A stretch of DNA of 64,000 nucleotides from Candidatus Scatovivens sp. (GCA_045646345.1 JAZRKN010000015.1:192001-256000); one strand, 5' to 3'. Counted from the first letter of the stretch, positions 759 through 63,638 are shown. Notes: generated by a model not told the origin, from the sequence alone. A program made the numbers and translations.

Positions 759-1763
759 TTAATAAATATTTACTGGTGCATATTTTGTTTGATTAAAGTT
801 TTTATAATATGCATCTTCATTATCGCCAATTTTTCTCCAAACTCCAGATATACCTTCAAAAGAACATTCTGGAGATATATCTTTTATATCTTCACCTGTT
901 TTATTTAAATATAAAAATTTATTATTACTATATAATAAATCCATCTTTATAGCTTTTTTTCCTGTTCCATATCTAAAATATGAAATGTCATCTTTTATTG
1001 AAAAATTAGGTATCCACACATAGATATAATTATTAACATCTAATACAGAGCCATCATAATTAGCAAATTTTTTTAAAGTGCCATCTGGATTTATAAATAA
1101 ATCTTTTAATGATTCTCCTTCTCTTGAAAATACTATAACTTTAGCCCATTTTTTTGAAGAATAATTATACCATTCAATATCATCAATACTTGTTGTTATA
1201 TACAAATCCTCGTTAGTAGAATATTTGATTGGTATAATTTCATAATCTTCTAATTTAATTCCAAGACTTTTAAAATATTCATCATTTATTATCGGTGGAT
1301 TACATTCTCCTATCGTTTCTCTTTCGATAACTGTAGAAACATCCACTGATTCTACTTTTTTATTTACTGAATATTTTACTGCTATTTTAATATTTTTAAT
1401 TAAATTAAATTGTTCTCCATAATTTTCAATTTGTAGTTCAACAACATAATCGTTTGGTATTTGTGTTCCAAAAAACTTTTCATTAAACTCATTACCATAT
1501 ACTGTTATGTATTGAATATCACCTTCAATTCTTTTGGAAATACCAACAAAAGAAAGTGATTCAATATATTTTTCTATGTCATCAAAATTTCTAATTTTGA
1601 TATTTTCTAATATATTACTAGAAAGAATTGCTGCTTCTGATTTTTTATTTATTCTTTGTGAAGATATTTTTATTTCAAAAGAAATTAAAGTTACACAAAA
1701 AATAATACTTAAAACTACAATTATTGAAAAAATTATTTCTAACGGCATAATTTTTTTCTTCAT
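759..1763 (-). CDS. Pilin-like / pilus-associated protein
   Basis: N-terminal KKK-IMPLE plus hydrophobic helix (degenerate prepilin), C-terminal YVWIP motif, located in pil cluster. Confidence 0.55.
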   Translation of the reverse strand: MKKKIMPLEIIFSIIVVLSIIFCVTLISFEIKISSQRINKKSEAAILSSNILENIKIRNFDDIEKYIESLSFVGISKRIEGDIQYITVYGNEFNEKFFGTQIPNDYVVELQIENYGEQFNLIKNIKIAVKYSVNKKVESVDVSTVIERETIGECNPPIINDEYFKSLGIKLEDYEIIPIKYSTNEDLYITTSIDDIEWYNYSSKKWAKVIVFSREGESLKDLFINPDGTLKKFANYDGSVLDVNNYIYVWIPNFSIKDDISYFRYGTGKKAIKMDLLYSNNKFLYLNKTGEDIKDISPECSFEGISGVWRKIGDNEDAYYKNFNQTKYAPVNIY

Positions 1764-1789
1764 AATTCAATCCTAAATATATACTAAAT

Positions 1790-1826
1790 TAGGCATATAC
1801 ATTATCTATAAAATGCATATGCCTAT
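1790..1826. terminator. Inverted repeat TAGGCATAT...ATATGCCTA after the small pilin-like gene
   Basis: 9-bp stem between 1831..2004 and 759..1763. Confidence 0.45.
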
Positions 1827-1830
1827 TTTT

Positions 1831-2004
1831 TTATTTTTGAGTTGTTTTAGCCTCTTCAACTAAATTGTTAACAAGAGGTTTTACTTCTCTGTCATAAATA
1901 CCATTATCTTGTAATACAACATAAGCAGTTACTCCTAATATCATTACTAATACTACTATTAATATTACAAATCTGTGTATTGCCATTCCTTTTTGAGATC
2001 TCAT
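1831..2004 (-). CDS. 57-aa type IV prepilin-like protein (not in ORF track)
   Basis: AAGGAG RBS, MRSQKG|MAIHRFVILIVVLVMILGVTAYVVLQDNGIYDREVKPLVNNLVEEAKTTQK: class III signal peptide plus hydrophobic helix. Confidence 0.7.
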   Translation of the reverse strand: MRSQKGMAIHRFVILIVVLVMILGVTAYVVLQDNGIYDREVKPLVNNLVEEAKTTQK

Positions 2005-2016
2005 ATTTTTTCTCCT

Positions 2017-2568
2017 TTATTTTGAATTTTCTTTTTCAAAGAAAGTTCCAACAGAGCTTTCAGTTTTATCTTTTGATACTCTATTTGTTATAGTGTTTTG
2101 TACACTACCTGTTACTTTATTTGGGGCTTTTTTTACTTCTTCTTTTTCAACTTTTTTGTTATCTTCAACATCTTCTGTTTTTACAGGATTTCCCGCTTGT
2201 GGATTTGTTGTTGTTCCTGTTTGTGTTGTAGTTGTTACTCTTTTATCAATAGATTCTGATGTCTCAGCAAAAGGATCTTTTTTTCCACTCTCATAATAAT
2301 TATCTTCTGCATAAATTTTCAAATCATCAGCATCTATACTATATGATTGTAATACTGAATTTGAAGTTTGTTTTTTTACATCAACTCCACTATTGTCTTG
2401 TATTTCTGTAAGAACATTATTTACAGTTTCACTTGTTTGGTATTTAACTGAAACAATATCTTTTGTATTTACTGACATAGAATCATAAAATAATATTCCT
2501 AAACAAAACATAATTACTATAAAAAGTAATACTATTATAAAAACTTCTTTAACAATTTTATTATTCAT
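2017..2568 (-). CDS. PilP-like pilus accessory membrane protein
   Basis: N-terminal TM helix, GKKDPF motif typical of PilP, position after PilO-like gene. Confidence 0.5.
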   Translation of the reverse strand: MNNKIVKEVFIIVLLFIVIMFCLGILFYDSMSVNTKDIVSVKYQTSETVNNVLTEIQDNSGVDVKKQTSNSVLQSYSIDADDLKIYAEDNYYESGKKDPFAETSESIDKRVTTTTQTGTTTNPQAGNPVKTEDVEDNKKVEKEEVKKAPNKVTGSVQNTITNRVSKDKTESSVGTFFEKENSK

Positions 2569-2585
2569 TACTTTTACCTCTTTAT

Positions 2586-3227
2586 TTAATATTCAACAAC
2601 AGTATCTTTATATACACTTCCTGATGTTGTTGGAACTGTTGATAATTTTTGGCTGTTGATTGGTATATCTTTTACAGTAAAGGTTGCTTGTAAATTTTCT
2701 CCACCTTTTTCCATCGAAAAGTTTCTTATTTCAAAATTTAATTTGTCATCATTTTCTACACTATAAACAAAATCTGTTATAGCTATATAATCACCTGTTA
2801 TTGTAAAATTCAAATCACAATACACATATTCTGGTGATATAGATGCTTTTATTGCACTTTTTGAAATATCAAATTGAAGAGTAACTCCTTTTTGTGTAGC
2901 ATAATTTCCTATTGTTGCCCATAAGAAATCTACATCATACATTTCCATTGAAGTTACTGTCTCTTCTGTTATTTTTCCTTCTTGCACTAATGTATCATAT
3001 TGTGCTTTTTTATTTTTATATTCTTGAACTGCAGAACTTAGTGCTGTTTGTTTGGCAAAAAATTCTGTTGAGTTTTTTGTACTAAGTTCAGTTAAAACTT
3101 GTCTTTTTTCAGCTAAGGAAGCATTAACTTCTTTGTAACTTGGAATAAATGTAAATCCAAAACTCATTACTAAAAAACATAAAATACAAGATATTATTAG
3201 CACAAGGATTAATAAATATTTTCTCAT
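2586..3227 (-). CDS. pilO: PilO-like type IV pilus assembly protein
   Basis: TM helix, coiled coil, then LNFTITGDYIAITDFVYSVEN (PilO/GspM ferredoxin-like signature). Confidence 0.7.
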   Translation of the reverse strand: MRKYLLILVLIISCILCFLVMSFGFTFIPSYKEVNASLAEKRQVLTELSTKNSTEFFAKQTALSSAVQEYKNKKAQYDTLVQEGKITEETVTSMEMYDVDFLWATIGNYATQKGVTLQFDISKSAIKASISPEYVYCDLNFTITGDYIAITDFVYSVENDDKLNFEIRNFSMEKGGENLQATFTVKDIPINSQKLSTVPTTSGSVYKDTVVEY

Positions 3228-4834
3228 TATTTTAAATCTCCTTCTATAGTAATTTGAACAAGCGAATCACTTTTTGTTCCAGGTGTAGATTTAATATTTG
3301 CAAACATTCCATCTGCTTCTATAGCAGCAAAGAAATATGCTAATTGTTCATATCTTTCTGATACCGCTTCTATAACTATATGGTTATTTTCTGTATTTTC
3401 TATAGAAATTAGTTGTACCTTTTGAGGTATTATAAACATTATTTTGTTTAACATATTTGGAACTGCATTTTTTGAAATTACTCTTGTATTTTTTGAAGTT
3501 GATTCTCCAGTTGATTCTGCACTACTAATTAAACTTGCATATGCATTTGTATAGCTTTGAATTTGTGAAAGTTCATTTTCTATTTTTGCAATTTCTGAAG
3601 TAGTTTCTTGTAATTTTTCTTTTGCAATTTCAGTTTGTTTTATATTCTTTAAGTATAATCCTCCACCAATACAAGAAAATCCTATAATAGCAATCAATGC
3701 TGCTGCCACTCCTCTTGCTATCATTTTTTCTTGAATATTAAGTGGTTCTTTAAATAATTCTCTCCAATTTTTAATATCAAAATTTTCTTTTGAATTTAAA
3801 ATTGTTTCAATTTCAATATTGTCGAATTTTGATGTTGGAGCAAAGTTTAAATCTTTATTTATATAACCTAATCCATCAAGTGCTAATGCTATAGCAGAGT
3901 TAACTTCAATATACTCTTTTGTTGGTATTTTTAATGAATTTGGTTCTATAAAAAATGGTTTTAATATTTCACAATTTATATTTTTCAAATAATCTTGTAA
4001 ATATAAATCTATATTGCTTATTGTTGCTCCCATTCCAGTTATATAAATTTTGTTTATTTTTTCTTTATAGCTACTAAATACTTTTTTCATCTCACTAGCT
4101 ATTTTATTTAATACTGGCATTACAATATCTATATATTCATTTTCGTTTTCATCTAAACTTTTTGCTTCATTATCATATATTGTTATGTTTTTGCAAACTT
4201 CATATGCTTTTTTCCAAGACATTTCAAGTTTATTTACTTTTTCAACAACAGTTTCTAAACCTGCATTTAAAACATCAACTCTTGTGATTTGTCCATCAAT
4301 TATCGTTGTTATTTTTGTCTCATTTTCTATATTAACGATTGCAATATTTTCATTTTCATTTGATTCAACTAAATTTGTTATACTTGTTGAAACAGGTGTC
4401 ATTGTAAATAATCTATAATCTGATAAAATATCTATTTTTTGATCTACTTCATTTTTATTTGCTGATATATATAAAGCTTTATACTTCTCATAATTTTCTT
4501 TATTATCCATCAAAATATATCTAGATTCTAAATACTTTTTATCATAACCTTTTTCTGAGCATAACATTTCAAATTCTATATCTAATGATTTTGTTATATC
4601 TTTTTTCTCTAGAATAGAAAATACATCAAAATAATTATATAATTCATTTGAAATATTGATACTAATAGGAACTTTATAACTATTTGTTTCATTAATTACT
4701 TTTACTAAAGCTTTTTCTAAATCTTCAAAAACTTCAACGTTAAATGCTTCAACTTTAAAAGTATCTCTTACTTTTTTTAATTTTGCATATTTTATTAAGT
4801 TCTTATCTACATAAATTCCTAAACAACTTGACAT
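3227..4834 (-). CDS. pilM: PilM-PilN fusion protein
   Basis: Actin-like PilM motifs (CLGIYVD, IYITGMGATISNIDLYL, AIALAL), then LNFAP, TM helix and PilN-like IPQKVQLISI domain. Confidence 0.8.
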   Translation of the reverse strand: MSSCLGIYVDKNLIKYAKLKKVRDTFKVEAFNVEVFEDLEKALVKVINETNSYKVPISINISNELYNYFDVFSILEKKDITKSLDIEFEMLCSEKGYDKKYLESRYILMDNKENYEKYKALYISANKNEVDQKIDILSDYRLFTMTPVSTSITNLVESNENENIAIVNIENETKITTIIDGQITRVDVLNAGLETVVEKVNKLEMSWKKAYEVCKNITIYDNEAKSLDENENEYIDIVMPVLNKIASEMKKVFSSYKEKINKIYITGMGATISNIDLYLQDYLKNINCEILKPFFIEPNSLKIPTKEYIEVNSAIALALDGLGYINKDLNFAPTSKFDNIEIETILNSKENFDIKNWRELFKEPLNIQEKMIARGVAAALIAIIGFSCIGGGLYLKNIKQTEIAKEKLQETTSEIAKIENELSQIQSYTNAYASLISSAESTGESTSKNTRVISKNAVPNMLNKIMFIIPQKVQLISIENTENNHIVIEAVSERYEQLAYFFAAIEADGMFANIKSTPGTKSDSLVQITIEGDLK

Positions 4835-9946: not shown

Positions 9947-10450
9947 ATGAGTTATTCAATTGAATCAGAAAGACTTCTGCTTCGGCCATTCAAATTAGCA
10001 GATGCAGAAGAATACTTTCAAATGACAAGTGATGCTACAATTAGACACTATATTCCCCACTGCTGGAAAAACACAATTGAAAAAACAAGAGATTTAATCT
10101 CAAAATATTATTTACATGGAGATTTTTCAAGAGACTTTTACATTATAGTCGAAGATAAATTCTCTCATGAAATAATTGGTTCAATTATCGCAGTTGCAAC
10201 AAGAACAAAACCTTTAGACCTTGATATATCATTCATGATAAAAGCAGAAAAACGCAATCAAGGTTATATGTTTGAAGCTCTTGAAGCATTCATGCGGTCT
10301 GTATCCAAACCAGCTTATCTTACCTTTATGATAAAGAAAGATAATGTTGCTTCATTAAAAACAATTGCGAAATTTCCAGTCATAAGAGAATACAAAATCT
10401 CAGGGAAAAATTACGAAAACGAGATATTCTTCGTTATCGAACACAAGTAG
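9947..10450 (+). CDS. GNAT family N-acetyltransferase (RimJ/RimL-like)
   Basis: IESERLLLRPFKLADAEE, RNQGYMFEAL, DNVASLK; GGAGG RBS before ATG 9947. Confidence 0.85.
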   Translation: MSYSIESERLLLRPFKLADAEEYFQMTSDATIRHYIPHCWKNTIEKTRDLISKYYLHGDFSRDFYIIVEDKFSHEIIGSIIAVATRTKPLDLDISFMIKAEKRNQGYMFEALEAFMRSVSKPAYLTFMIKKDNVASLKTIAKFPVIREYKISGKNYENEIFFVIEHK

Positions 10451-10553: not shown

Positions 10554-11189
10554 TTAATAAAAATTTTCAACAAGGAAAATAAGTTTAATCCAAGGCAAAG
10601 ACACTTTGTAGATTTTTTTATCTGCGATAAACTCTTCAAACTCTTTCTCTAAATAAAATTTTTTGAGTCTAATATCACAGAGACGATTGAAATATACCTG
10701 CAGACGTCTTATGTTCATCATTTTGCTAGTTCTCCAAGAACCGGTATATTTTTTCTTTTTGAGTTTGTAATATTCGTCTGTAGGCTTCATTTTCACTCTT
10801 GCTTTTTGGAAAATGTTTTCCTCTAACAGATCTCCACCTTCCAGATAAATCTGATATGCAGCTACTGGAGCTTCGATATGGTAATTTGAAAGCCATAATT
10901 CATAATCCCAAATAAATTGCCGCAGATCGGCTGGAAAAACTTCCAAATTGGTAAAGAACTTTTCAAGCTTTGCTCTAAAAGCTTTCACTTCTTCAGATTC
11001 TTCTGGAAGCGCTTCTACACTTTCTTCGTATTCAAGGTCTCGTCTCTTATCTCTAATAAGATCACTGATAACTCTTCTTGGAACCTCGTATTCTACAGAA
11101 AGCTTTACCAAATTATCCAGTGCTAATAATACTTCTTCTGGAATATTACTTTCCTTTTCTTTTTCAATATTTACTGATGTCGTTCTCAT
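10554..11189 (-). CDS. Hypothetical protein, paralog of 11303..11938
   Basis: GGAGG RBS, own promoter; shares FR.K.EKFF.N, NYH.EA...AY, NI...A...M motifs with neighbour. Confidence 0.75.
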   Translation of the reverse strand: MRTTSVNIEKEKESNIPEEVLLALDNLVKLSVEYEVPRRVISDLIRDKRRDLEYEESVEALPEESEEVKAFRAKLEKFFTNLEVFPADLRQFIWDYELWLSNYHIEAPVAAYQIYLEGGDLLEENIFQKARVKMKPTDEYYKLKKKKYTGSWRTSKMMNIRRLQVYFNRLCDIRLKKFYLEKEFEEFIADKKIYKVSLPWIKLIFLVENFY

Positions 11190-11267
11190 AATTGTAGTAC
11201 CTCCATATTGAACGCGCTAAGGGTTAAGGGTTAACATAAGAAATTATAACATATATTTAAAAAAACT

Positions 11268-11295
11268 GCAAGAGGCTAGCAATGCTAGCCTCTTG
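11268..11295. terminator. Hairpin between the two paralogs
   Basis: CAAGAGGCTAGC-AAT-GCTAGCCTCTTG. Confidence 0.7.
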
Positions 11296-11302
11296 AGAAA
11301 TA

Positions 11303-11938
11303 TCAAGAATTACAGATTAAATATATCATTTTAAGCCAGACTTCTTCGCTGGCACTATAGTCATAGTCAAACAAGAATCTATTGCAATCTTTATTTAAAT
11401 CTTTATTTGAAAGAAGTAAATCCTTTGTTAAAGCTTCAAAATAGTTTTTCAAACCTTGGATATTTTCTTTTTTACTTGTTAAATGCCATACTTTTTCTTG
11501 CTTACCAACTAAGCGTTTTTTCATATCTATATAGAAATCAGATACTGACATTCTACTTTTTGCGTTATCATAGATATTTGCTATTGTAAGCGGAACATTT
11601 GCTTTAAACAACTTATATGCAGAGCACATAGCTTCTACATGATAATTTGCAAATTCAAATCTATAGTCGTTAAATGCTAAATTTCCGATTGGCAATAAAT
11701 CAGGATTTGAAAAAAACTTTTCTGTTTTTAATCTAAATTCAGAGAATTTATCATCTTTAATTGGGCAAATAGATTTTGATCTCTTATGCTTTTCTCTTGC
11801 AATATCAAGTTCTACTACAAGCTCTTTGTGAGTTATTCCATACTCATAAGCTTTTATTGCTGTTTCCTCAATTAAGATTTGTAATTCTTGTGGTATTGTT
11901 TTTTCCACGATACTTACTGCTGTCACTTTTGTCTTCAT
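11303..11938 (-). CDS. Hypothetical protein, paralog of 10554..11189
   Basis: GGAGG RBS before ATG 11938; sequence similarity to neighbour. Confidence 0.75.
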   Translation of the reverse strand: MKTKVTAVSIVEKTIPQELQILIEETAIKAYEYGITHKELVVELDIAREKHKRSKSICPIKDDKFSEFRLKTEKFFSNPDLLPIGNLAFNDYRFEFANYHVEAMCSAYKLFKANVPLTIANIYDNAKSRMSVSDFYIDMKKRLVGKQEKVWHLTSKKENIQGLKNYFEALTKDLLLSNKDLNKDCNRFLFDYDYSASEEVWLKMIYLICNS

Positions 11939-14629: not shown

Positions 14630-14658
14630 TTGACCTTTTATGTAAACAGTGCTATAAT
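14630..14658 (+). promoter_or_regulatory. SigA promoter of orphan cassette, near-identical to 51750..51778
   Basis: TTGACC-ttttatgtaaacagtgc(17)-TATAAT. Confidence 0.8.
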
Positions 14659-14783
14659 TATAATAGAAAAAACCTAAATACAACCCAAAAACGATTAATT
14701 GTCGTTTTTCTACATTTAGGAGGATGTAGTTTTTGCATGTACGTATAACATTCACTCTCACACATTTTGAGGAGGATCATATT

Positions 14784-15104
14784 ATGCCTTATTCCCGTAC
14801 CGCTCGTCAGTCCAAGCACGATGTTGGCAGCTGCGTCATCGCCACCCTGCCCAAGATCGACTTCAGCTATGGTTACCTCCGGGAAACCGACAAGAATCCC
14901 AACCGTACGTCATACACGATCGGTCACCTCAAGAGGGATGCTCGTTTGTATCTCCGTAATGGTCAGTCCTTCCAGGAGTTCTCTGACTATGTCAACCGGA
15001 TCTACGTAGGCAACCCCGACTTCATCTGGAACCCCAAAAAGAAGGTTCTGTTCGAAGCCCACATGGAACAGCTCAAACAGGGCTGGCCTGTGAAGTACAT
15101 CTAA
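14784..15104 (+). CDS. Hypothetical protein (GC-rich cassette), paralog of 15773..16084
   Basis: GAGGAGG RBS, strong C-ending codon bias, own promoter and terminator. Confidence 0.8.
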   Translation: MPYSRTARQSKHDVGSCVIATLPKIDFSYGYLRETDKNPNRTSYTIGHLKRDARLYLRNGQSFQEFSDYVNRIYVGNPDFIWNPKKKVLFEAHMEQLKQGWPVKYI

Positions 15105-15116
15105 GCTACACACCTG

Positions 15117-15150
15117 TCTCCCTAGCGTCTTCGTTGGGGAGGCTTTTCTT
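15117..15150 (+). terminator. Intrinsic terminator
   Basis: CTCCCTAGCG-TCTT-CGTTGGGGAG followed by a T-tract. Confidence 0.75.
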
Positions 15151-15209
15151 TATATAAAGACAAAATTGTTAAACTTTTATCTATAATAATTTAATTTCAA
15201 CTCATCTTT

Positions 15210-15238
15210 TTGACATTTTATGTATACCATGTTATAAT
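15210..15238 (+). promoter_or_regulatory. SigA promoter of orphan cassette
   Basis: TTGACA-ttttatgtataccatgt(17)-TATAAT. Confidence 0.85.
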
Positions 15239-15304
15239 ATATTTAAGTAAATATACACCCCGTGGCAACTTAGCCACACGTTTGATGAAAAAGGAGAATG
15301 CAAC

Positions 15305-15577
15305 ATGAAGATTATCGTAAACAACCAGGAAACTGACAACACTGTGTACGGGTTCTTCCCTGAGATTCAGGGCAATTCCGGACGCATCGACATCCACACT
15401 GAGTGGGTCCTCGAAAACGTCACAGAGTACAAGAGGCTCGGGAAATCTCTCGAAGAATGCGATCACGATTTGACCGAAGTTTTAACCAAAGCGGCCGACG
15501 CCGATCTCTTCTTTTGGAGAACCCCTGAAATGGAAGCTGTTTTCCACGAAGACATTGCAAAGCTCTTCGCACAGTAA
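15305..15577 (+). CDS. Hypothetical protein (GC-rich cassette)
   Basis: AAGGAG RBS, C-ending codon bias, own promoter and terminator. Confidence 0.8.
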   Translation: MKIIVNNQETDNTVYGFFPEIQGNSGRIDIHTEWVLENVTEYKRLGKSLEECDHDLTEVLTKAADADLFFWRTPEMEAVFHEDIAKLFAQ

Positions 15578-15597
15578 CCCCTGGTTTAAACCCTTTT

Positions 15598-15632
15598 GCC
15601 CCCGCGAACTTACGCGGGGGGTTTTTCTTTTT
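15598..15632 (+). terminator. Intrinsic terminator
   Basis: CCCCCGCG-AACTTA-CGCGGGGG followed by a T-tract. Confidence 0.85.
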
Positions 15633-15651
15633 AGTTAACATCTTCGTAATT

Positions 15652-15680
15652 TTGACACATTATGTAAAATATAGTATAAT
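15652..15680 (+). promoter_or_regulatory. SigA promoter of orphan cassette
   Basis: TTGACA-cattatgtaaaatatag(17)-TATAAT. Confidence 0.85.
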
Positions 15681-15772
15681 ATATATATGATTAATTATAG
15701 ATAATCAGTAGGTCTATAGACCTAGATGCTCATGGAAAATTGCATAGAAAGATCAAACGAGGTATTAACATC

Positions 15773-16084
15773 ATGGCAAAAAAACTATTCAAAACAGGTG
15801 GAACTGGAATGACAACAGAAAGACACGCAAAAAAAGCTAAGATCAGATACGGCATCTTAGTTACCGACCCTACAAAAGTAGATAAGGACAACCGTGCCGA
15901 CATCAACATCAAGATGATTCACGATCAAGTGAAGATGTCTAGAATGTGCAAACATTCTTCTGAAGATTTCATGCGTGCGATTAAGGATTTAGCGGCTAAC
16001 CCTAATATCATTTGGGACCGCCCTTCTGCACAAGATGAATTCATCCAAACAGCTGAAGCAGTTTGGTTCAGAAGAGCTGCATAA
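15773..16084 (+). CDS. Hypothetical protein (cassette), paralog of 14784..15104
   Basis: GAGGT RBS; shared YG.L...NR...I...S..(E/D)F...NP..IW pattern. Confidence 0.8.
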   Translation: MAKKLFKTGGTGMTTERHAKKAKIRYGILVTDPTKVDKDNRADINIKMIHDQVKMSRMCKHSSEDFMRAIKDLAANPNIIWDRPSAQDEFIQTAEAVWFRRAA

Positions 16085-16109
16085 ACTCATATCCAACTCC
16101 CCAACAGTT

Positions 16110-16140
16110 ACCCTTGCGAGCTTTCGCAGGGGTTTTTCCA
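16110..16140 (+). terminator. Intrinsic terminator
   Basis: ACCCTTGCGA-GCTT-TCGCAGGGGT followed by a T-tract. Confidence 0.8.
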
Positions 16141-16190
16141 TTTTATAAACAAAACAAAAAGCAGCGGAAAACCGCTGCTTTTTTGGCTGA

Positions 16191-16835
16191 TTAGTACATC
16201 TTCATAACTTTTTCGAAAGAATCAGCTGCACTAGGTGTATTGTTATCGATTTTGTGGTATTCTGCACCTGCTCCGATAAGAATCTCAAGAATTGCAGGAG
16301 TTTGCTCGTTATACTGAGCAAGTCTCTTTCTCACAATTGCTTCTTCATCATCTTCTCTCTTAACAAGAGGAGCACCACAGTCATCGCACACGCCCTCCAC
16401 CTTAGGCGGATTAAACTCGTTAAGAGTATAAGGCTTTTTACATTTACTGCAGATAATTCTGTCTTTTGCTCGCTGTACGACAACATCGTCGTCTACATGA
16501 AGTTCAACAACAGCATCGGGTTTGTGCCCCATTGCCACCATTGCTTTTGCCTGTACATCAGTTCTCGGGAATCCGTTACAAATAACGGTCTTGGTTGCAG
16601 ATTTAAGTTCTTCTGCAACAAGATGAAGGATAATCTCATCAGGGACGAGTCCGCCTTCTTTCATGATACGCTCGATTGTTCCCCAAAGCTGAGGATCGGT
16701 TTCTTTAACCTTTCTGAGCAAATCACTCATTCCCATAACTTGGTACTTGGCATGGTTTTTCTCCATGAATTTGGCTAGCCGTGTGTCTTTACCAGCCCCG
16801 TTCTTTCCAGTCAATACAATTGTATTTACACTCAT
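16191..16835 (-). CDS. adk: Adenylate kinase family (divergent, zinc-lid type)
   Basis: GKNGAGKDT P-loop, GGLVPDE, GFPRT, CSKC...CDDC lid, REDD. Confidence 0.85.
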   Translation of the reverse strand: MSVNTIVLTGKNGAGKDTRLAKFMEKNHAKYQVMGMSDLLRKVKETDPQLWGTIERIMKEGGLVPDEIILHLVAEELKSATKTVICNGFPRTDVQAKAMVAMGHKPDAVVELHVDDDVVVQRAKDRIICSKCKKPYTLNEFNPPKVEGVCDDCGAPLVKREDDEEAIVRKRLAQYNEQTPAILEILIGAGAEYHKIDNNTPSAADSFEKVMKMY

Positions 16836-18442: not shown

Positions 18443-19099
18443 TTATTGGTCTTTTACAAGTGTACATTTCTTTTTTCTGATTGTTGCTACTTTTTCCTTC
18501 AGTCTGAAGTAATAGAAAAGTTTTCTTAATACATCTTGATATTCTTTCCATTCTTCAATACAGTCATCCATATCATATAAATGAAGGCATTTTCTTTCAA
18601 CTTTAGGAATCAGCATTCTTGCTCCTCTTGCTCTTTCTTCAAAAGAAAGTTTGCAACCATCTTGAGTCAAAAGCATACATGGATCTCCTTTTAACTTTTT
18701 ACTCGAAACAGTTGCTATACCAGTTTTCCTGGTTCGTGTGCGTAAGATGTAGAAATACTTTCCTGTTGCCTTAGAACTTTTAAACGTTGACTCAACTATA
18801 TCTCCTGGAAAACTTACAATAGATATATATTGTTTTTCTTCCAGCAGTTTTTTCATAGCCTTAAACGAAAGTTCTTCAAAATCTCTAGGACTCCAATGAC
18901 ATGGTGCCCTTAGACAACACCGACCTCCACATTCTTCACAAATTTCAGGTTTCTCTGCTCTTTCATTCTTGTATAATTCCAATACCTTTTGGCGATAAGC
19001 TTCTGGATTTTTGCAAATTTCATCGATGATTTCAAACAATTCGTTATCCACTTTATCTTGTCCGAAAATCTTTATCAATGTTTCTCGACTTTTGTCCAT
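18443..19099 (-). CDS. CxxCxxxCC cysteine-cluster (YkgJ-like) protein, cassette
   Basis: ICEECGGRCC..PC, CMLLTQDGCKLSFEER. Confidence 0.65.
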   Translation of the reverse strand: MDKSRETLIKIFGQDKVDNELFEIIDEICKNPEAYRQKVLELYKNERAEKPEICEECGGRCCLRAPCHWSPRDFEELSFKAMKKLLEEKQYISIVSFPGDIVESTFKSSKATGKYFYILRTRTRKTGIATVSSKKLKGDPCMLLTQDGCKLSFEERARGARMLIPKVERKCLHLYDMDDCIEEWKEYQDVLRKLFYYFRLKEKVATIRKKKCTLVKDQ

Positions 19100-25139: not shown

Positions 25140-25604
25140 TTACTTGGAATTCAATTCATCACAGATTTGGAAATACTTCTCTTTTGCCACACGGTGTTCC
25201 ATATAGTCAGCTCTTTCCTTATACTCGAACACAGGAAGAGTTTCGTCAGACCAAGGAAGTTTGGTAATAGCATAAACCGGCCCGGTAACGCCCAAAGAAC
25301 CATATGTCTCTTCCCTAACAGTAACGAGACCATATTCCTCTGTTAAACGTTCCATGATTTTATTTCTGTCAGATATATTAGTGTAACAGGTTGCAACACG
25401 AATATATCCCAAAGGGGTATAAATGCGACTAGGTAAACCGTAGTAGATCTCTAAGCCAATACCTCCATTTTCTACAATTTGATTGTAAAATGTATTTATC
25501 GACTCAGTATTCTCCCAGACCTGAGTTCCCATTTCTTTAATCGTATTGCAAATACCATCCCGGACTTTGAAAATGTTTTCCCAGTATGCAATATTGATTT
25601 CCAT
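25140..25604 (-). CDS. Hypothetical protein (GC-richer cassette)
   Basis: GGAGG RBS, own promoter (TTGAAA...TATAAT), codon use unlike neighbours. Confidence 0.7.
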   Translation of the reverse strand: MEINIAYWENIFKVRDGICNTIKEMGTQVWENTESINTFYNQIVENGGIGLEIYYGLPSRIYTPLGYIRVATCYTNISDRNKIMERLTEEYGLVTVREETYGSLGVTGPVYAITKLPWSDETLPVFEYKERADYMEHRVAKEKYFQICDELNSK

Positions 25605-42590: not shown

Positions 42591-43037
42591 TTACTTTTTC
42601 TTTACAATTTTCACATAGGTATCAAAGAAATTCACCTTTACATCCCAGTATTCATCCTGGAAAAACCACACTCTGATTTCATGCTGTTCATAATGAAGTT
42701 CAAAGGAATCTCCTTTACCAGATTCACTCATCCATGCACCATTAGGATTTTTCATAAAACAGTTTCCGCCAATAATACGGTACTTGGCGTTTTCATACAT
42801 TTTCACATCATTAAAAACGCGAATAATGCAATTGGCCTGAGACGGTTTTACGAATTTCACTTCATAACCAAGCTCTTCAATCTGCTCAATCAACTTTTTT
42901 CTGAGTTGGTCCCATCTCAAATCCATAAAAACTCTTTTAGACTTCCTGTTTGCAGGATTTCCGTCTTTATCCAGTAAGTAAAAATCCCAGAGTTTCATTT
43001 CCCGAATTCTGGCTTTTTGCTCCTTTGTAAATATCAT
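42591..43037 (-). CDS. Hypothetical protein (cassette), paralog of 43113..43598
   Basis: Shared ANC.IR, G..CF.K...G.W, N.FD.Y.K. Confidence 0.75.
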   Translation of the reverse strand: MIFTKEQKARIREMKLWDFYLLDKDGNPANRKSKRVFMDLRWDQLRKKLIEQIEELGYEVKFVKPSQANCIIRVFNDVKMYENAKYRIIGGNCFMKNPNGAWMSESGKGDSFELHYEQHEIRVWFFQDEYWDVKVNFFDTYVKIVKKK

Positions 43038-43112
43038 TTTGCTCCCCCCATTGAAGTTTTTGATTCGCAAAAGGCGATTTTGACATTTGTCTCTATCGCC
43101 TTTTACTTTGGT

Positions 43113-43598
43113 TTACTTGTGATGATCCACTTTGAGATACACATCAAAGTAATTTGCCGCCACAGGATTTTCGTAGACAGTCAGCAAAGACGTCCAGTAC
43201 GTAACCATGTAGTGTTTACCATGAGTGATCTCAACAAATTCGCCATCTTTGTTGATTCTCGTCCATCTGCCCATAAAGTCCTTTACAAAACATACAGCTC
43301 CGCAAAGTCCTCCCTGAACATCGTTGATTTTGAGTTCTTTTCGATAGATGCGAATTACGCAGTTTGCAGCTTCCGGAGATACTATGTAGTGAGAAAATCC
43401 AGAATCAGTTAGTTTGTCTAACATCTCCTTTTTCATCTCATCATAGGTCGGAATCGGCATTCTAGCATTTGCTTTGTAAGTATCCTCAAAATCTATTCTG
43501 GCTTCAATATTTCCAGATTGGACATACCAGTTAGTAGTATACTTACAAAAAACTGTTTCCATGCGTCTCAGTGTATTACATAATTGCCTGTTTAACAT
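43113..43598 (-). CDS. Hypothetical protein (cassette), paralog of 42591..43037
   Basis: GAGGTG RBS; promoter TTGATA-ttatgtaaatactgtgc-TAAAAT at 43663..43691. Confidence 0.75.
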   Translation of the reverse strand: MLNRQLCNTLRRMETVFCKYTTNWYVQSGNIEARIDFEDTYKANARMPIPTYDEMKKEMLDKLTDSGFSHYIVSPEAANCVIRIYRKELKINDVQGGLCGAVCFVKDFMGRWTRINKDGEFVEITHGKHYMVTYWTSLLTVYENPVAANYFDVYLKVDHHK

Positions 43599-44873: not shown

Positions 44874-45260
44874 TTAGTCAACCAGTTTAAGAATTCTTGC
44901 AAGTCTTGTTAAAAAACTCTTTTTCTTTGCACGAGCATTTTCTTTTTCTTGCTCGTTAATTGAATCTAAGTCTTCAAGTGCCACTTCCATTAAGTCATAA
45001 TCGTCGATAATTTCCATCAGAGCAGCTGGACTCTCAAAGAATATACATTTTGCCTTTGCCTTTTTGTTTTCTTTTTCGTCCTTGTCAGCAATTTCTAGAT
45101 ACTTCCACTCACCGACTTCCTTATCATGTTTTGCATATATGTAACCATATTTCATGCTACTAATGCAATCCATTTCTCTCCTTGCAATGTTTCTTAACAG
45201 TCTTCTGCTTTCTTTACTTTTCAATACTTCAGTGCTTACGCCAAATACCATTTCTCCCAT
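44874..45260 (-). CDS. Hypothetical protein (cassette)
   Basis: GAGG RBS, own terminator (44831..44852) and promoter, GC-richer than host genes. Confidence 0.65.
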   Translation of the reverse strand: MGEMVFGVSTEVLKSKESRRLLRNIARREMDCISSMKYGYIYAKHDKEVGEWKYLEIADKDEKENKKAKAKCIFFESPAALMEIIDDYDLMEVALEDLDSINEQEKENARAKKKSFLTRLARILKLVD

Positions 45261-45495
45261 GCTGTTTTTCCTCTTATTTTCTATCTTTGACAAAAATCTG
45301 TTAATACACTTTGTACTTATACAGATTTAACACACTAGTTACAATTATTATTATACAACATTTTCCTTTAAATTTCAATGCTTTCAGTTAAATGTTTACA
45401 TAATTTTCTGTTTAGTATTTATCATAAGCTTGTTTTAATTAATAAAACAAAAACCGAATTGAGCTTTCAATTCGGCTTTTATCTTTTATTTACTT

Positions 45496-51908: not shown

Positions 51909-52343
51909 ATGGAAAATAAGAATATGAACAATAACACACTCAAGACCAAAAAAGACTCCAAGATTAAGCTCGTTTGGAATCGTTTCAAGAACATCGTTTG
52001 CCGCGCCAAGACTGCTATCAGCAAGGTAACTACTCCTGTCGGCAAATTCATCAGAAAGTACCTTTTCCCGATCGCACGAATGATCACCAGTGGCATCATC
52101 ATTGCCATTGCGCTGAACGTCATCACCGCGAATTTCTGGCCTGAGCTGCCTGATACCATCCCTACCATTTATGAATTCTTCAACGGATTCCTGGTATTGG
52201 GAGAATATCTCTTCAAGGTGGCAATTGGCGGTCTCGCCTCCATCTTTAATGGAAGCTTCTTCGAGTTCTCCGCAATGAACTCCGAGGAAATCAGTGCTAT
52301 GTGGAATGCTTTCTGGAACTGGGCTAACGGAATCAAATTCTAA
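51909..52343 (+). CDS. Hypothetical membrane protein (GC-rich cassette)
   Basis: GAGGT RBS, basic N-terminus plus two hydrophobic segments, C-ending codons. Confidence 0.75.
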   Translation: MENKNMNNNTLKTKKDSKIKLVWNRFKNIVCRAKTAISKVTTPVGKFIRKYLFPIARMITSGIIIAIALNVITANFWPELPDTIPTIYEFFNGFLVLGEYLFKVAIGGLASIFNGSFFEFSAMNSEEISAMWNAFWNWANGIKF

Positions 52344-52524: not shown

Positions 52525-53559
52525 ATGAAAAAACACACCAAGAAAAACACCAAGACTAAGGCTTCTTCTCAGAAGACAGCCAAGCACCCATCCGTTATAA
52601 CTATTTGTTGCCTGGTGACCCTTGTACTCATCGCCTGCGCAGGTACCTTCTTCGGGTATCAATATTACATTAATTCTGGAAGTACAACAAACATCGATGA
52701 ATCTATCGATTTTGAGCAGAACTTTATCGATCTCTACTCTACTCCGTTTGTTCCGGAAGGAACTTATCGGATTGAGTCTATCGTTCTCAACGGATTTGAT
52801 CCAGTAGAAGGAATGGAAACCTATGACGTTTTCACAAACTTCAGTTCCTCTCCTTTTCCTTTTGGAATCGACCTTTCGTTCCAGGAGGTAATTGAAAACT
52901 GTCCGAGTCCTTCGGAAGAAAATACCAAATTCGTACAGTTTTCTAAAAAAGAGCAGAAAATGATCGAATCTGCAAGAAAGCTTGTGGTTCAGTACGTCAA
53001 AAACTCTGATATTTTTAAAGACAAGGATGAACTGATTGAATCCGTTCAAACCGTTCCTTTTTATCTTTACAAAGAATCAGATCTTGAGAGCCTTAATGTT
53101 GAATGGGTTCCAGCCCAGACTCAGGGAACTGGAATTTACTGCAACAAGCAGTATGATTTCTCTTTCTCTGAAGCAATGTTTGTACATGAACTTATCCATC
53201 ATATTCGATATCAGACTAATCACACTACATCTCCTACATATTCTGGAACGATGTACGATGAAACTCTTGTCGAAATGATTACTGACTCCATCAATCCTAA
53301 GGATCATACTAATACTCAGGTAGAATACGATCTGTTTGCCTACCCGATGACTCAGTATCTTTCTCTGTTTGGAGCAGAAGAAGTTCTTACAGCATTCTTC
53401 TATGGCTATGATGAGTTCTTTGCAAGTCACAGCGAACACCTTTCTAAAGTCGAGCACAATGCCTTCACCGATATTGTTGGTGCATTTGGGTATCACCCTA
53501 ATGGAGCAAATATCCTTCAGGGATTCTGTAATACCTGGCATGATCGGCTTACTGCATAA
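52525..53559 (+). CDS. Membrane-anchored HExxH zinc metallopeptidase-like protein (cassette)
   Basis: TM helix, FVHELIHH and downstream YDETLVE (gluzincin-type third ligand). Confidence 0.65.
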   Translation: MKKHTKKNTKTKASSQKTAKHPSVITICCLVTLVLIACAGTFFGYQYYINSGSTTNIDESIDFEQNFIDLYSTPFVPEGTYRIESIVLNGFDPVEGMETYDVFTNFSSSPFPFGIDLSFQEVIENCPSPSEENTKFVQFSKKEQKMIESARKLVVQYVKNSDIFKDKDELIESVQTVPFYLYKESDLESLNVEWVPAQTQGTGIYCNKQYDFSFSEAMFVHELIHHIRYQTNHTTSPTYSGTMYDETLVEMITDSINPKDHTNTQVEYDLFAYPMTQYLSLFGAEEVLTAFFYGYDEFFASHSEHLSKVEHNAFTDIVGAFGYHPNGANILQGFCNTWHDRLTA

Positions 53560-54228: not shown

Positions 54229-54591
54229 TTAATTTCGAAGCAATTCCAAAAGCTCTGGATAGCTTCTAGTTACAAAGTCTTGAGGTATTTCTTTCCCCTC
54301 TTCTTTTAAAGCTTTATATACTGCAATCAAATATAATCTATCTCTTAAGTTAATTAAAACTTGAAGTGCTGGATCATCATAATTATTATCAAAACCAAAT
54401 TTAAGAGAATTTTCAAACTTAAGTAAGAAATTAGTTTCCACTGAATATTTATCTTCTATTCTTATAACTTCATCTTTGTCATATATATTCCTAACTATCA
54501 TTTCTCTAACACAATCTATATCTTTTAAAATTCTAATATCTACTTTATGATTTTCAAGCTCATCATGTAATTCTTCTATTCTATTTTGCAT
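54229..54591 (-). CDS. Hypothetical protein
   Basis: GGAGG RBS, 120 aa. Confidence 0.65.
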   Translation of the reverse strand: MQNRIEELHDELENHKVDIRILKDIDCVREMIVRNIYDKDEVIRIEDKYSVETNFLLKFENSLKFGFDNNYDDPALQVLINLRDRLYLIAVYKALKEEGKEIPQDFVTRSYPELLELLRN

Positions 54592-54688
54592 AACGCCTCC
54601 AAAAAAACTCTTTTTGTTAGTTTGCGCATATTAATATATTTTATGCAAAAAAAGAAGGCAGATGCCTTCTTTTTTTATAAATTTTATA

Positions 54689-55153
54689 TTACAATATATA
54701 AGTATTATGGAAATAATTAAATATCGATTCATCTGTTATTTGTGACGTACATCTTTTAGAGTCACAACTAATTGGATTGTATGCATTTTTCCAAGGATCT
54801 TCTGAATGTGTCATTTCTTCTAATTCTGAACCTGAATATCTTCCAAAAACAGCAACAACTTTATCTACAAAATTTTCATTTTCTTTTTGCTCTAATTTAA
54901 TATTTTTTGAATGAGTCATTAGACTATTACTTTTTCCATACTGTTTCATATAAAAATATACCTTTCTTATTACTGGTCCATGCTCCCAAGCTTCAAACTT
55001 TTCATCAAATAGCTTATTCATATTTTCTGAATATTTCTCATTATATTTTATTAGATATATTGAATAAGCATAGTATAGTATTTTTTGTACTTGCTTAGGA
55101 GTATAAGCGCCTTTTGATAATATGAATTTTGCTACATTTATAACATTTTCCAT
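54689..55153 (-). CDS. Panacea (DUF4065 / SocA-GepA) antitoxin-domain protein
   Basis: VAKFIL, QKILYYA, FEAWEHGPV, LEEMTHSEDPW. Confidence 0.9.
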   Translation of the reverse strand: MENVINVAKFILSKGAYTPKQVQKILYYAYSIYLIKYNEKYSENMNKLFDEKFEAWEHGPVIRKVYFYMKQYGKSNSLMTHSKNIKLEQKENENFVDKVVAVFGRYSGSELEEMTHSEDPWKNAYNPISCDSKRCTSQITDESIFNYFHNTYIL

Positions 55154-55168
55154 TTTTTATTCCTCCTT

Positions 55169-56014
55169 TTACATTATACCTAAATTTTTTATTACCACTT
55201 CTCCAAACGGAGTTATAATATACATTTCTTCACCTTCATCTGATTCAATTATATCATTGTTTTCCAAAAAAACAATAATATTTTTTGCTTTTCTCGTTTT
55301 GCTTATGTCAGACATATTTCTATATCCCTTCATTTCCGAAATAATTTTTTTTACTTGTTCTTGGCTTATTTCCAGCTTTTCATAATATAACTTTCTAAGA
55401 ATATATTTCGTTAAATTTTTCATATATACTATCACTTCTATACTTTTTAATTCATATCTATTCAATAAATCTTTTTCCGAATAATCTTTTAACAATTCAA
55501 TTTCATTTCTTTCATCATTATTGTTCTCATCATCAGAACCAATAATAGTTCCTATTGAAGGCTTTAAATCTTTTTTATCTGATTGAACTATTTTTTCATT
55601 GGTCTGGTCATCTTCATCAAAAGTTTCTATACCATCTTTCCCAAATTTTTTTATTCTCCCTAACATTCTTATAATTGGAACGAGAAATATCCCTACTACT
55701 ATTATTATTCCAATTGTAAAGTTATAGTTACTAAACACCTTTTCTGCAATAACATTATTATTTAAATTATATTTTTGGCTTAATACAAATGGATATTCTA
55801 ACATATCTTTTCCCAATTCAATTACTTGAAAAGTTGAATATATTACTAATATACAATTTATAATGATATTCCAAACTTTCTTGTCTTCTCTACTTATATA
55901 AATTTCTATTTTAGCAATTTCACAAAGTTTTTTCCAAAATTCTTTTACATTTTGCTTCATATTTATTGTTGCCTCTTTCTTATATTTATTATCTGTTACT
56001 CTGTTTATCACCAT
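55169..56014 (-). CDS. Hypothetical protein: two TM helices plus C-terminal winged-helix-like region
   Basis: Hydrophobic segments; FLENNDIIE...YIITPFG wHTH wing. Confidence 0.6.
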   Translation of the reverse strand: MVINRVTDNKYKKEATINMKQNVKEFWKKLCEIAKIEIYISREDKKVWNIIINCILVIYSTFQVIELGKDMLEYPFVLSQKYNLNNNVIAEKVFSNYNFTIGIIIVVGIFLVPIIRMLGRIKKFGKDGIETFDEDDQTNEKIVQSDKKDLKPSIGTIIGSDDENNNDERNEIELLKDYSEKDLLNRYELKSIEVIVYMKNLTKYILRKLYYEKLEISQEQVKKIISEMKGYRNMSDISKTRKAKNIIVFLENNDIIESDEGEEMYIITPFGEVVIKNLGIM

Positions 56015-56951
56015 ATTGACTCATTATCTCGTCATATATAACTTGAACACTATTCACATAATCATATGAACAATTATAATCAAAAATAGTTTGACTTATA
56101 GCACTTTCATATAAGCAGTTGCCCTCTTGCTTTTTATTTTTTTTATAGTATTTTTTTATTAATTTATATCCATTTTTTACACTTGTTTTATTGTTGATAA
56201 TTACTTTTGATTTTACTTGCATTATTCCTAATGTTGCTTCTTTACCCAACAAAACTTTAATGTTTTCTAACATTCTAATAATTGAAGGTCTATTAAAATC
56301 TTCATTTATCATTATTGCATAAACTAAATTGGATATTTCTTCATCTTTTTCATTTATTATCTCTCCATATTTATTTCTGAATTTTTCATATTTTTTAGCA
56401 ATATATTTTTCTTTTATTATTTTTTCTTTTTCCATATCTATATAAGTATAATTATAAATATATTCTCTTATTACAACAAATATGAATATTATAAATGCAG
56501 TCCAAATCCCATCTCTTAAAGATTCCATTGAAATAAATATATCTTCTGTTTTAGTTAAAAACACCTCGTATAAACTCCAAGTCAGTAATATTCCAATTCC
56601 TGCTACAATAATTTCTGCTCTCCAATCTTGTAATTCACCTCTTCCCAATATTATAGTTAAATATACAATTCTTACAATATAATAAAACACACTGATTAAA
56701 TATACGTCTTCTACAAATTGATTTAGATTACATTCATAAAATATTCCAGATAATATTGTTACATATATCACAGGAAACAATACTCTTATTAATATATTTA
56801 ATCCTAAAGGTCTTTTCTCCATATCAGAAAATTCCATCGAAGAATATTTTATTTCAACACAATCTCTTCTCAATGTTGCTATTTTACTGCACATCAAAAT
56901 TGTTACTACATATCCCAAAACAGATAAAACAAAAAATATTAAATATTTCAT
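55989..56951 (-). CDS. Polytopic membrane protein with C-terminal lysozyme/SLT-like domain
   Basis: About 5 TM helices; AIMINE...ATLGIMQV...DYN...YVNSV. Confidence 0.55.
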   Translation of the reverse strand: MKYLIFFVLSVLGYVVTILMCSKIATLRRDCVEIKYSSMEFSDMEKRPLGLNILIRVLFPVIYVTILSGIFYECNLNQFVEDVYLISVFYYIVRIVYLTIILGRGELQDWRAEIIVAGIGILLTWSLYEVFLTKTEDIFISMESLRDGIWTAFIIFIFVVIREYIYNYTYIDMEKEKIIKEKYIAKKYEKFRNKYGEIINEKDEEISNLVYAIMINEDFNRPSIIRMLENIKVLLGKEATLGIMQVKSKVIINNKTSVKNGYKLIKKYYKKNKKQEGNCLYESAISQTIFDYNCSYDYVNSVQVIYDEIMSQYGDKQSNR

Positions 56952-56992
56952 TTTTTTAACCCCTTTACTTTAAATTTTCAAAACAATCTTAC

Positions 56993-58228
56993 TTATAAAA
57001 TTCCAACTTCTTCTGTAAATAATCTTTTGCATTCTTCTTTTGTAATTTCTTGTTTCTTAAATTTATCATATAAATCTAGTAATGTTTGAGTTTCTATTAT
57101 TAAAGCACCATTCCTTGTCGCTATTCTTAATTGATTTTCATGAATTTTTTGTCTTTTGTCTAATGGAATTTTTCTTTGATGATTTATTATCAATACCCCT
57201 TTTACATTTTCTTCTTTTTTCTCAAGTTCTAATTTGTCCATATATTCTTGAACATGATTATCTAATTGTGCTACATTCTTATTAGCTACTGATTGTGATA
57301 TTCCTTTTATCTCTCCTATAAATGTTATATCATCTTTTTTTATTAAAAAGTCTTCTCTTCTTTCATCTATAAAAGTGCTAGAATCGTTATCTAGAAGTTC
57401 ATCTAATATTTCTAATACAATTTTAACCAATTTATCTCCAGTAGAATATAAAATACTTTTATATTCTAAATTTTTTCTCAATTTCTTTTCTAATACTTCA
57501 TTTTCATTTTTTAAATCCTCTATTTTTTCTATATTTTTCTCTTTAGCAGCAATTAAAACCTCATCGTCAAAAAAATTAATATCTTCAATCCATTCTGGAA
57601 TCTCTTCTTGTTCATTGGAATCAATACAAAATTCATTTATAAAAGCATTTAATTCTTCTATATTATTATTTATACCCAAAAAATCTAATGTCGTTAGAAT
57701 TATAGTTTCTTTTTTTATTGTTGTTGGTTTTCCACTATTATTAGATTGAGATAATATCTCATAATGGGCTAATGCAAAATCAGAAAAATAAAAATCAGCA
57801 TTTATATTACAATCTTCAACTTTAGTAATAGTTTTTTCTGAACATATTCTAAAATACGATATATCTATAACATTTTCTGTAATAATTGAAAATAATGCAT
57901 CTCTCATATTTTTAAGACTTTCTTTTCTCATAAATGTTACCCCATCATTAGCAGAATAATAATTGTATGTTAAATTTTGAGGTAAAACAATTAATATTTT
58001 ACATTTTTCACTCCTACTAATTGCTTCTTTGAGATTTCCTAAATCTTTCGCACAATTAAGACCCGTTTTAGTTGCTGCATTATATTTCCAAATATCTGAT
58101 TTATTCAAATCAATTATGCATAATTCAAAATCATCTAAAGCTTGAAAATTATCAAAAGTAGAAATAACATATTTTCCTTTAGTTTCTTCTTCATATAATT
58201 TTTTATTAATTCCTATTATTTGTATCAT
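56993..58228 (-). CDS. Protein with coiled coil and C-terminal PD-(D/E)xK nuclease-like domain
   Basis: REDFLIK...FIGEIKG...VAQL...KGVLIINH. Confidence 0.65.
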   Translation of the reverse strand: MIQIIGINKKLYEEETKGKYVISTFDNFQALDDFELCIIDLNKSDIWKYNAATKTGLNCAKDLGNLKEAISRSEKCKILIVLPQNLTYNYYSANDGVTFMRKESLKNMRDALFSIITENVIDISYFRICSEKTITKVEDCNINADFYFSDFALAHYEILSQSNNSGKPTTIKKETIILTTLDFLGINNNIEELNAFINEFCIDSNEQEEIPEWIEDINFFDDEVLIAAKEKNIEKIEDLKNENEVLEKKLRKNLEYKSILYSTGDKLVKIVLEILDELLDNDSSTFIDERREDFLIKKDDITFIGEIKGISQSVANKNVAQLDNHVQEYMDKLELEKKEENVKGVLIINHQRKIPLDKRQKIHENQLRIATRNGALIIETQTLLDLYDKFKKQEITKEECKRLFTEEVGIL

Positions 58229-61066: not shown

Positions 61067-61306
61067 ATTATCACTCCATTTCCAATAATATAAAATTATT
61101 TAGTTTTCCCATTAAACATTTCAAAAATATTATACTATCCTATTTTTTAAATTTCTAGTTTTCTTATAAAACATTCATTTATTCAATTTTTATATTCCTT
61201 GTATTCATTGCTATGACTGTTTTTTGCCACTTTTCCATATCTTCAAAATTTCTAGATAAAAAACAAAACCTAGCACAATCTTTTGACTATGCTAAGTTTT
61301 TCTTTC

Positions 61307-63625: not shown

Positions 63626-63638
63626 CAACTCACCCAAT

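Follow-up and report, generated by a model that had tools for sequence, protein, structure and literature searches.

A set of about 100 inherited single-gene transcription units with a codon dialect of its own and promoters often marked by XerD-arm motifs in Candidatus Scatovivens

Acinetobacter pdif modules are plasmid-borne and flanked by an inverted pair of sites. Neisseria minimal mobile elements are variable cassettes between conserved genes, and the T4-type PeSL early cassettes share an early-promoter design. With regard to the Xer system, the XerD arms of three seed dif sites read TTATGTTAAAT, TTATGTAAACT and TTATGTCAAGT in the available part of the source (PMC3025954), and XerD binding without recombination also has a precedent in the accessible text of PMC11894783.

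The locus described here comes from a Candidatus Scatovivens draft genome (G000, the source genome; 1.79 Mb, 27-28% GC) whose order is probably TANB77, which the available part of PMC11680825 portrays as uncultured, genome-reduced and without many growth traits. The window, meaning the whole analysed stretch of 64,000 nucleotides, corresponds to G000:C15:192001-256000. Three promoter-ORF-terminator units with TTGAC(A/C)-N17-TATAAT promoters, hairpins in their 5' leaders and terminators follow each other at 14630-16140, largely as the original prediction had described them. Compared to a genome GC3 mode of 0.10-0.15, their ORFs reach a GC3 of 0.71, 0.62 and 0.39. In correction of the claimed wealth of C-ending codons, unit 3 is just moderately C-rich. 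Similar units are indeed present elsewhere in the window, but the codon atypicality of those at 9947, 11303 and 18443 is weak (scores of -0.08, -0.17 and about 0), and not all of them are orphans as had been proposed: the unit at 16191 encodes the second adenylate kinase of the genome, and the one at 9947 belongs to the GNAT proteins. The motif positions given earlier are mostly right, apart from two that were off by one (correctly 14638 and 43677) and a copy in a core gene at 50754 that had been overlooked. The features are as follows, with class membership as defined further below:

14630..14658, + strand: unit 1 promoter, TTGACC-17-TATAAT plus TG extension, its spacer containing the XerD-arm motif (14638-14646)
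14784..15104, + strand: unit 1 ORF, an orphan of 106 aa; GC3 0.71, the genome's strongest codon dialect
15116..15150, + strand: unit 1 intrinsic terminator, -20.9 kcal/mol
15210..15238, + strand: unit 2 promoter, TTGACA-17-TATAAT with TG extension; one-mismatch motif at 15218-15226
15305..15577, + strand: unit 2 ORF, 90 aa; GC3 0.62
15599..15632, + strand: unit 2 terminator, -19.4 kcal/mol
15652..15680, + strand: unit 3 promoter, TTGACA-17-TATAAT without TG extension; motif at 15660-15668
15773..16084, + strand: unit 3 ORF, an orphan of 103 aa; GC3 0.39, C3 0.25
16110..16142, + strand: unit 3 terminator, -16.7 kcal/mol
16191..16835, - strand: second adenylate kinase (adk2), class member with its own promoter; one-mismatch motif near 16900; 79% identity with G043 and 53-54% with G005, whose rplT is 98-99% identical
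9947..10450, + strand: GNAT acetyltransferase unit that belongs only weakly to the class; several relatives have it in synteny (37-66%)
10554..11938, - strand: two paralogous 211-aa orphan units (10554-11189 and 11303-11938); motifs at 11231 and 11974
18443..19099, - strand: Cys-rich unit (weak CxxCxxCC), weak class member; motif at 19181 overlaps its -35 region
25140..25604, - strand: orphan unit; GC3 0.37
42591..43598, - strand: paralogous pair (42591-43037 and 43113-43598) from a family internal to the order, with a motif at 43677
44874..45293, - strand: orphan unit with a motif at 45395 and an orthologue in G050 (61%)
51909..52343, + strand: unit for a membrane protein, with its motif at 51760; four relatives have it in synteny (40-49% identity), and GC3 is 0.59-0.72 throughout
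52525..53559, + strand: 344-aa unit; reverse motif at 52414 forms its -35; orthologue in G045 at 34%

Units 1 and 3 are restricted to the species. The ORF of unit 1 has no match in Pfam or PHROG, was found in 0 of the 74 other genomes of the genus and forms one cluster among 5.8 billion proteins. Unit 2, on the other hand, has a syntenic orthologue in the relative G043 (39% identity, GC3 0.68), and promoter and terminator are homologous too. For the protein encoded at 42591, a model with a confident predicted fold (pLDDT 89.5) gave a best Z of 3.6 among 48,161 chains, which is not proof of a new fold, and no viral match at E 0.001; its family comprises 47 clusters, the named ones being 'Clostridia bacterium' only, with no viral locus among them. 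Looking up orphans in the ESM Atlas returned nothing for two out of two proteins. Towards the ends of the window, a type IV pilus-like gene run (PilM, pilin-like) occupies 759-4834, and 54229-64000 is low in GC and variable, with a different content in each relative; its genes, which include defence-like and capsule-like ones, use core codons, unlike those of the class.

The units are part of a set of about 100 transcription units, each with a single gene, that are inherited and evolve fast. We called 1680 ORFs on G000 and defined the class by a log-likelihood score for codon usage, for which genes whose GC3 is at least 0.33 served as training set; this yielded 103 atypical genes at 80 loci on 16 contigs. 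As this definition rests on codons, features independent of it were tested. Class genes stand alone in 78 of 105 cases (core: 384 of 1376), a T(G/A)TG extension precedes TATAAT in 43 of 72 (core: 40 of 318), and the median terminator amounts to -19.3 kcal/mol (n=90) versus -10.4 kcal/mol in a one-in-three sample of the core (n=230). If genes are picked by the promoter motif alone, 31 of 61 are atypical, compared to 61 of 805 otherwise. A Pfam match at E 0.001 was obtained for 19 of 57 class proteins outside the window, including two cell-wall hydrolases, HNH and colicin-like nucleases, a DarT-associated NADAR protein, a beta-CASP nuclease, an FtsH-like protease and a HIT protein, and several class genes are second copies that have diverged from core genes. 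HIT-like class genes occur as three paralogues, at G000:C1:195283, C11:78053 and C19:36784, two of them matching phrog_23000.

The comparison with G043 covered 920 kb, about 54% of that genome. All 31 reciprocal best matches of class genes (31/31) are syntenic, with a median identity of 66% versus 90% for 549 core genes. Between G000 and G043, class genes diverge about 2.7-fold faster than the core (dS 1.61 versus 0.58, dN 0.23 versus 0.09), and four-fold-site divergence is 0.97 versus 0.58; since both dS and dN are raised, the rate is higher while purifying selection is similar. From the side of G043, 34 of its 57 class genes have a syntenic partner, in comparison to 543 of 719 core genes. 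More distant relatives are likewise divergent, with synonymous sites near saturation. Nevertheless, the dialect is kept in 29 of the 31 partners, the gene-specific codon score is conserved (rho 0.87), and polarised synonymous changes, which come from five genes only, amount to 40 AT>GC and 34 GC>AT. The codon dialect is at equilibrium and not decaying. Together with the synteny of all 31 orthologues, this does not support the part of the original prediction that regarded the genes as foreign and captured, and the old syntenic orthologues in relatives also speak against gene capture by Xer; what stands is a regulon, likely under XerD. Four relatives have nothing between leuS and rplT (116-169 bp), where others have various fills, which indicates that units come and go, even though most of them are old. 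The relatives also differ in LeuRS itself, which is 809 to 969 aa long and has in-frame insertions at roughly one place (L035:6030-8939, L033:6285-8822, L032:6020-8509 and L094 of G043) and alignment gaps near query position 1300.

The dialect consists of a collapse of particular codons. Among the 55 genes of G000 and G043 in which it is strongest, this affects CCA, TCA, CTA, TTA, ATA, ACA and CAA, with GCA unchanged. The strongest class genes use CCA at 0.07 (core counterparts: 0.68), TCA at 0.03 (0.36), ATA at 0.02 (0.47), TTA at 0.06 (0.67) and CAA at 0.26 (0.97). Out of frame, TCA and CAA occur in these genes at 1.2-1.3 of expectation, and class leaders contain TCA, ACA and CAA more commonly than core leaders do. 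As TCA and CAA are avoided neither out of frame nor in leaders, the pattern points to selection on translation and not to mutational context. For Pro, Ser-TCN, Leu-CTN and Gln, the tRNAs found in G000 and G043 are just UGG, UGA, UAG and UUG, respectively, in draft genomes that may miss tRNAs (Ala and Ile are absent from the G000 set). The cognate codons CCA, TCA, CTA and CAA make up 71 of 1005 (7%) in 29 strong class genes and 5 of 45 in units 1-3, compared to 62% in the core and 57 of 82 (70%) in nine ribosomal/HU genes. Among the tRNA loci of G010 (L152-L181) are Thr-AGU and Gln-CUG, neither of which was seen in G000 or G043. In 20 GC-neutral codon ratios, class genes do not follow their own core (r -0.14) but correlate with G173 (0.79), G167 (0.77) and G191 (0.73), in a panel of 20 genomes with 12-20 kb each, of which 11 exceed 0.55 and in which G173 fails in the Pro and Val C/G ratios. 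The well-matching Clostridia have 42-54% GC, and the L13 cluster of G173 is labelled Ruminococcaceae/Oscillospiraceae. The match in codon ratios shows a general clostridial dialect and not one named host. Since three motif-promoter genes of family f3 have a GC3 of 0.15-0.21 only, the strong dialect may be limited to the genus.

The second common denominator is the promoter motif. Exact TTATGTAAA occurs nine times in the window (4.14 expected), a number reached by one of 100 shuffles, which makes the enrichment at window level alone modest; genome-wide, with 104 copies of which 78 are intergenic, it is strong. Enrichment between genes is 3-6-fold. Coding DNA is about threefold depleted (50 versus 159 expected in G000, 20 versus 84 in G043), as are pooled loci, mostly of the source genus (18 versus 41), while 20 Clostridia of other orders show no such depletion (19 versus 18.5). 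A single-base scan in G000 and G043 defines the site as TTATGT(A/T/C)AA with T favoured two bases on (117/212) and the G variant of the seventh base at background level. This TTATGTHAA(N)T motif and the XerD arms of the seed dif sites follow one pattern, and the identification as a XerD arm in the original prediction thus agrees down to the degenerate seventh base and the final T. Two other identities were rejected: canonical DnaA boxes cluster separately (G000:C11:3128-3490), and the motif differs from the Spo0A box, with Spo0A retaining its usual recognition helix. The comparison of atypical with typical promoters, which the prediction had suggested as a check, places the motif inside the -35/-10 interval in 46 of the 101 promoters of class genes, compared to 18 of 246 in the core, and shuffling the spacers of the class promoters gave a mean of 1.4 and a maximum of 6 in 500 rounds. 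Sense copies prefer spacer offsets 9-11 (25 of 35), and 10 of 25 reverse copies lie on the -35 box. Of 101 order genomes, 97 contain the composite promoter pattern, with as many as 19 copies; among 135 Clostridia from other orders, whose genomes are mostly GC-richer, 23 have it, with three copies at most. The reversed-pattern control is weak here because it also destroys the -10 box, so that the spacer shuffle is the better control. The overlap of motif and dialect is partial: about half of the class promoters are without an exact copy, and of the 61 promoters with the motif, 30 belong to genes in the core dialect.

A XerD orthologue is encoded at G000:C7:80230-81111 (L255:831-1712; E 1e-61 to 1a0p) behind spoIIM-like genes. 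All six order genomes inspected (G000 and five more, from five families) carry the exact motif within 200 bp upstream of xerD, where about 0.13 copies per 200 bp are expected at the site density of G000 itself; outside the order, sites were found upstream of xerD in one of three Clostridia. With about 150 sites in promoter spacers and upstream of xerD, the arrangement points to transcriptional control, and XerD probably binds these half-sites as an autoregulated repressor without recombination, as judged from the sequences. The hairpin lysine in the GKG of E. coli XerD is missing in nine of nine XerD proteins (six from the order, three from other orders), and the recombination activity of the clostridial XerD clade may be impaired. 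A loss special to the XerD of this order was discarded, because the other-order proteins (3/3) are also without the lysine.

The original prediction had also considered the units as modules mobilised by dif and Xer, i.e. excised and inserted by XerC/XerD at the motif sites like pdif modules. In its favour, the motif does represent a XerD arm, the genome codes for XerD as well as for two recombinases of XerC/XerS type, and units are gained and lost as whole blocks. However, none of the 158 motif sites has a conserved XerC arm next to it (best left-arm match 6/11; 0-6 in the window), and a single site lies inside each unit's promoter, mostly at the fixed spacer position given above, with no paired flanking sites; the spacers have diverged, which blurs insertion boundaries. 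Contigs from three DNA runs of three studies contain conspecific units at about 97-99% with no clean excision joint, bearing in mind that contigs drop rare forms and that the best unit-bearing run may be the source sample itself. With the old syntenic orthologues on top, this reading is already largely refuted, and we give it next to no chance. A real dif was not found in G000: the best match to the B. subtilis site reaches 20 of 28 positions, and a loose palindrome scan also came up without one; as the GC-skew switch falls on contig ends, dif may be unassembled. The two paralogous XerC/XerS-like recombinase genes lie at contig ends as well (G000:C3:61-1059 and C4:38404-39405) with motif-like sites upstream, and the real dif may be near them.

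For the class as a whole, we tentatively favour the explanation that its genes have been selected for translation in another, mid-GC clostridial cytoplasm in the manner of phage early genes. Strong promoters and terminators, a silencer site, evolutionary rates as in an arms race, takeover-type cargo and codons fitted to foreign tRNAs would all be expected of genes that have to be expressed immediately on arrival in a new cell. Under this scheme, XerD would repress many units by occupying the half-site over the promoter. The organism would attach to a host bacterium, its DNA or whole cytoplasm would reach the RNA polymerase and ribosomes of the host, and repression would lift there since XerD would be scarce. 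The products, mostly orphans but also nucleases, cell-wall hydrolases, the NADAR antitoxin and extra copies of adenylate kinase, of an FtsH-like protease and of a beta-CASP nuclease, would then subdue the host and be under arms-race selection. A bolder version, which we consider doubtful, would make this small-genome uncultured order intracellular invaders of other Clostridia with a phage-like eclipse phase, in which the chromosome enters the host cell and about 100 dispersed, host-codon-optimised early genes escape the XerD silencer, are read by host polymerase and ribosomes and take over the host before the invader's own machinery and sporulation come into play. Against a host speaks that host XerD should bind the same arm, and one in three other-order Clostridia also has sites upstream of xerD. 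Further points against it are the otherwise complete sporulation set of G000, the partial overlap of motif and dialect, the weak dialect of the three family f3 genes and the somewhat higher C content of class leaders. A search for a DNA-delivery machine in G000 returned one FtsK/SpoIIIE alone and no PilB/PilT-level match, and ComEC was not found in G000, likely due to an assembly gap. F/V-ATP synthase has no match (Rho only) in G000 and in 28 of 41 order genomes and is patchy within the genus, which is compatible with host dependence. In the RNA run X20, near-identical contigs cover adk2 as well as unit 3, the latter from 15747 to 16102 with the end at the terminator, and none covers leuS; this is only a hint at expression of unit 3 and adk2, as the cell of origin is unspecified, DNA is possibly present and contigs cannot rank levels. 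The RNA runs X16, X18 and X19 contain mainly core genes of relatives, and missing unit cover in them is uninformative.

Instead of a second cell, a XerD-controlled programme in a special state of the own cell, such as spore outgrowth, stress or infection by a tRNA-bringing phage or plasmid, could have fitted the dialect to the tRNA pool of that state. It would require no transfer route, the spore-former set is complete in G000 (sigE, K, G, H, Spo0A, SpoIVA and FabF), the motif system is order-wide and the strong dialect perhaps not, and the X20 contigs, be they transcripts or DNA, fit as well. Yet Pro, Ser-TCN and Leu-CTN are each served by at most one tRNA type with U34 in three genomes, so that shifts in the level of own tRNAs cannot favour CCT or CCG over CCA, and a helper element was not seen; we therefore regard this programme as rather unlikely. 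A sporulation-type sigma gene, possibly sigF, appears split in gene calling (G000:C5:95375-95645), which may reflect a frameshift or an assembly error. A local mutational or conversion bias on strongly transcribed units, by transcription-linked mutagenesis, A-to-N copying by a reverse transcriptase or GC-biased conversion, would account for the raised dS next to dN, for third positions at which A falls and T is stable, and for leaders that are mildly GC-richer (C content 0.18 versus 0.07 in the core). What makes it improbable is that avoidance depends on the amino acid, with CCA, TCA and ACA lost and GCA kept, and disappears out of frame and in leaders.

Two further explanations place the origin of the codons outside the lineage. 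Homologous allele replacement by competence, in the style of minimal mobile elements and from an unseen pool of phages or elements of mid-GC Clostridia, would keep codons foreign and divergence high. ComEC is present in 39 of the 41 order genomes, relatives have either no gene or different genes at sites like leuS-rplT, and adk2 looks mosaic against G043. A donor of class genes was nonetheless found neither in genus genomes nor in protein clusters, viral contigs or PHROGs, where 3 of 58 class proteins have a match; for adk2, a species-level genome scan gave no close relative beyond the genus and viral contigs just two 33% matches, its identities across relatives track host relatedness, the 47 clusters of the 42591 family are without a viral locus, and the promoter motif is order-specific. 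We judge this replacement to be unlikely. Ordinary, recently imported islets (morons) in the course of amelioration would suit the species-restricted units 1 and 3 and the graded GC3, and single orphans may still have such a history. For genes with orthologues, near-saturated synonymous divergence, a dialect kept in both lineages, balanced polarised changes and again the order-specific motif argue against it, which leaves recent import as highly improbable for the class.

Irrespective of the mechanism, two codon dialects at equilibrium within one genome, one of them mismatched to the own tRNAs, are undescribed in the searched literature, and the same applies to an order-wide promoter class marked by XerD half-sites. 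Among the openly accessible papers searched, none deals with the class, with repression of promoters by XerD or with a parasitic lifestyle in the group; the available part of PMC13249217 does not cover Clostridia. For XerD, acting as a global repressor would likely be a new job. If translation in a foreign cytoplasm is true, it would explain why a common gut order resists culture, make hosts predictable from codon usage and provide about 100 candidate host-takeover or anti-defence proteins per genome, mostly of unknown fold.

In comparison with known systems, the XerD-dependent SMC unloading at XDS in B. subtilis, as far as the accessible part of PMC11894783 describes it, likewise uses XerD as a site-specific DNA-binding protein with no recombination, whereas the sites here number about 150, are distributed genome-wide and lie in promoter spacers and upstream of xerD. 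The 11-bp consensus of the XerD arm is common to dif and pdif (available part of PMC3025954). Unlike these, the units have no XerC arm, no architecture with a 6-bp spacer and no inverted flanking pair, and they are not plasmid-borne. Phage early genes and genes of plasmid leading regions also combine strong host-type promoters, short stand-alone ORFs and many orphans with anti-defence-type cargo (NADAR in our case) and recipient-tuned codons (10.1101/2025.04.03.647016, available part). In contrast to them, phage homologues are limited to 3 of 58, no transfer origin or integrase is linked, and no location in a phage or prophage was found for the class genes, which sit singly at 80 loci dispersed over the chromosome of a cell that has ribosomes itself, and which are inherited vertically. 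Minimal mobile elements and PeSL cassettes are likewise variable between conserved genes or built on a shared promoter design, and competence machinery as well as alternative fills between conserved genes are present here, too. Near-identical cassettes across lineages were not found, as orthologues outpace core divergence in step with relatedness. Unlike in minimal mobile elements and PeSL, variation is mostly the divergence of old orthologues, and neither of the two is known to involve a second codon dialect at equilibrium.
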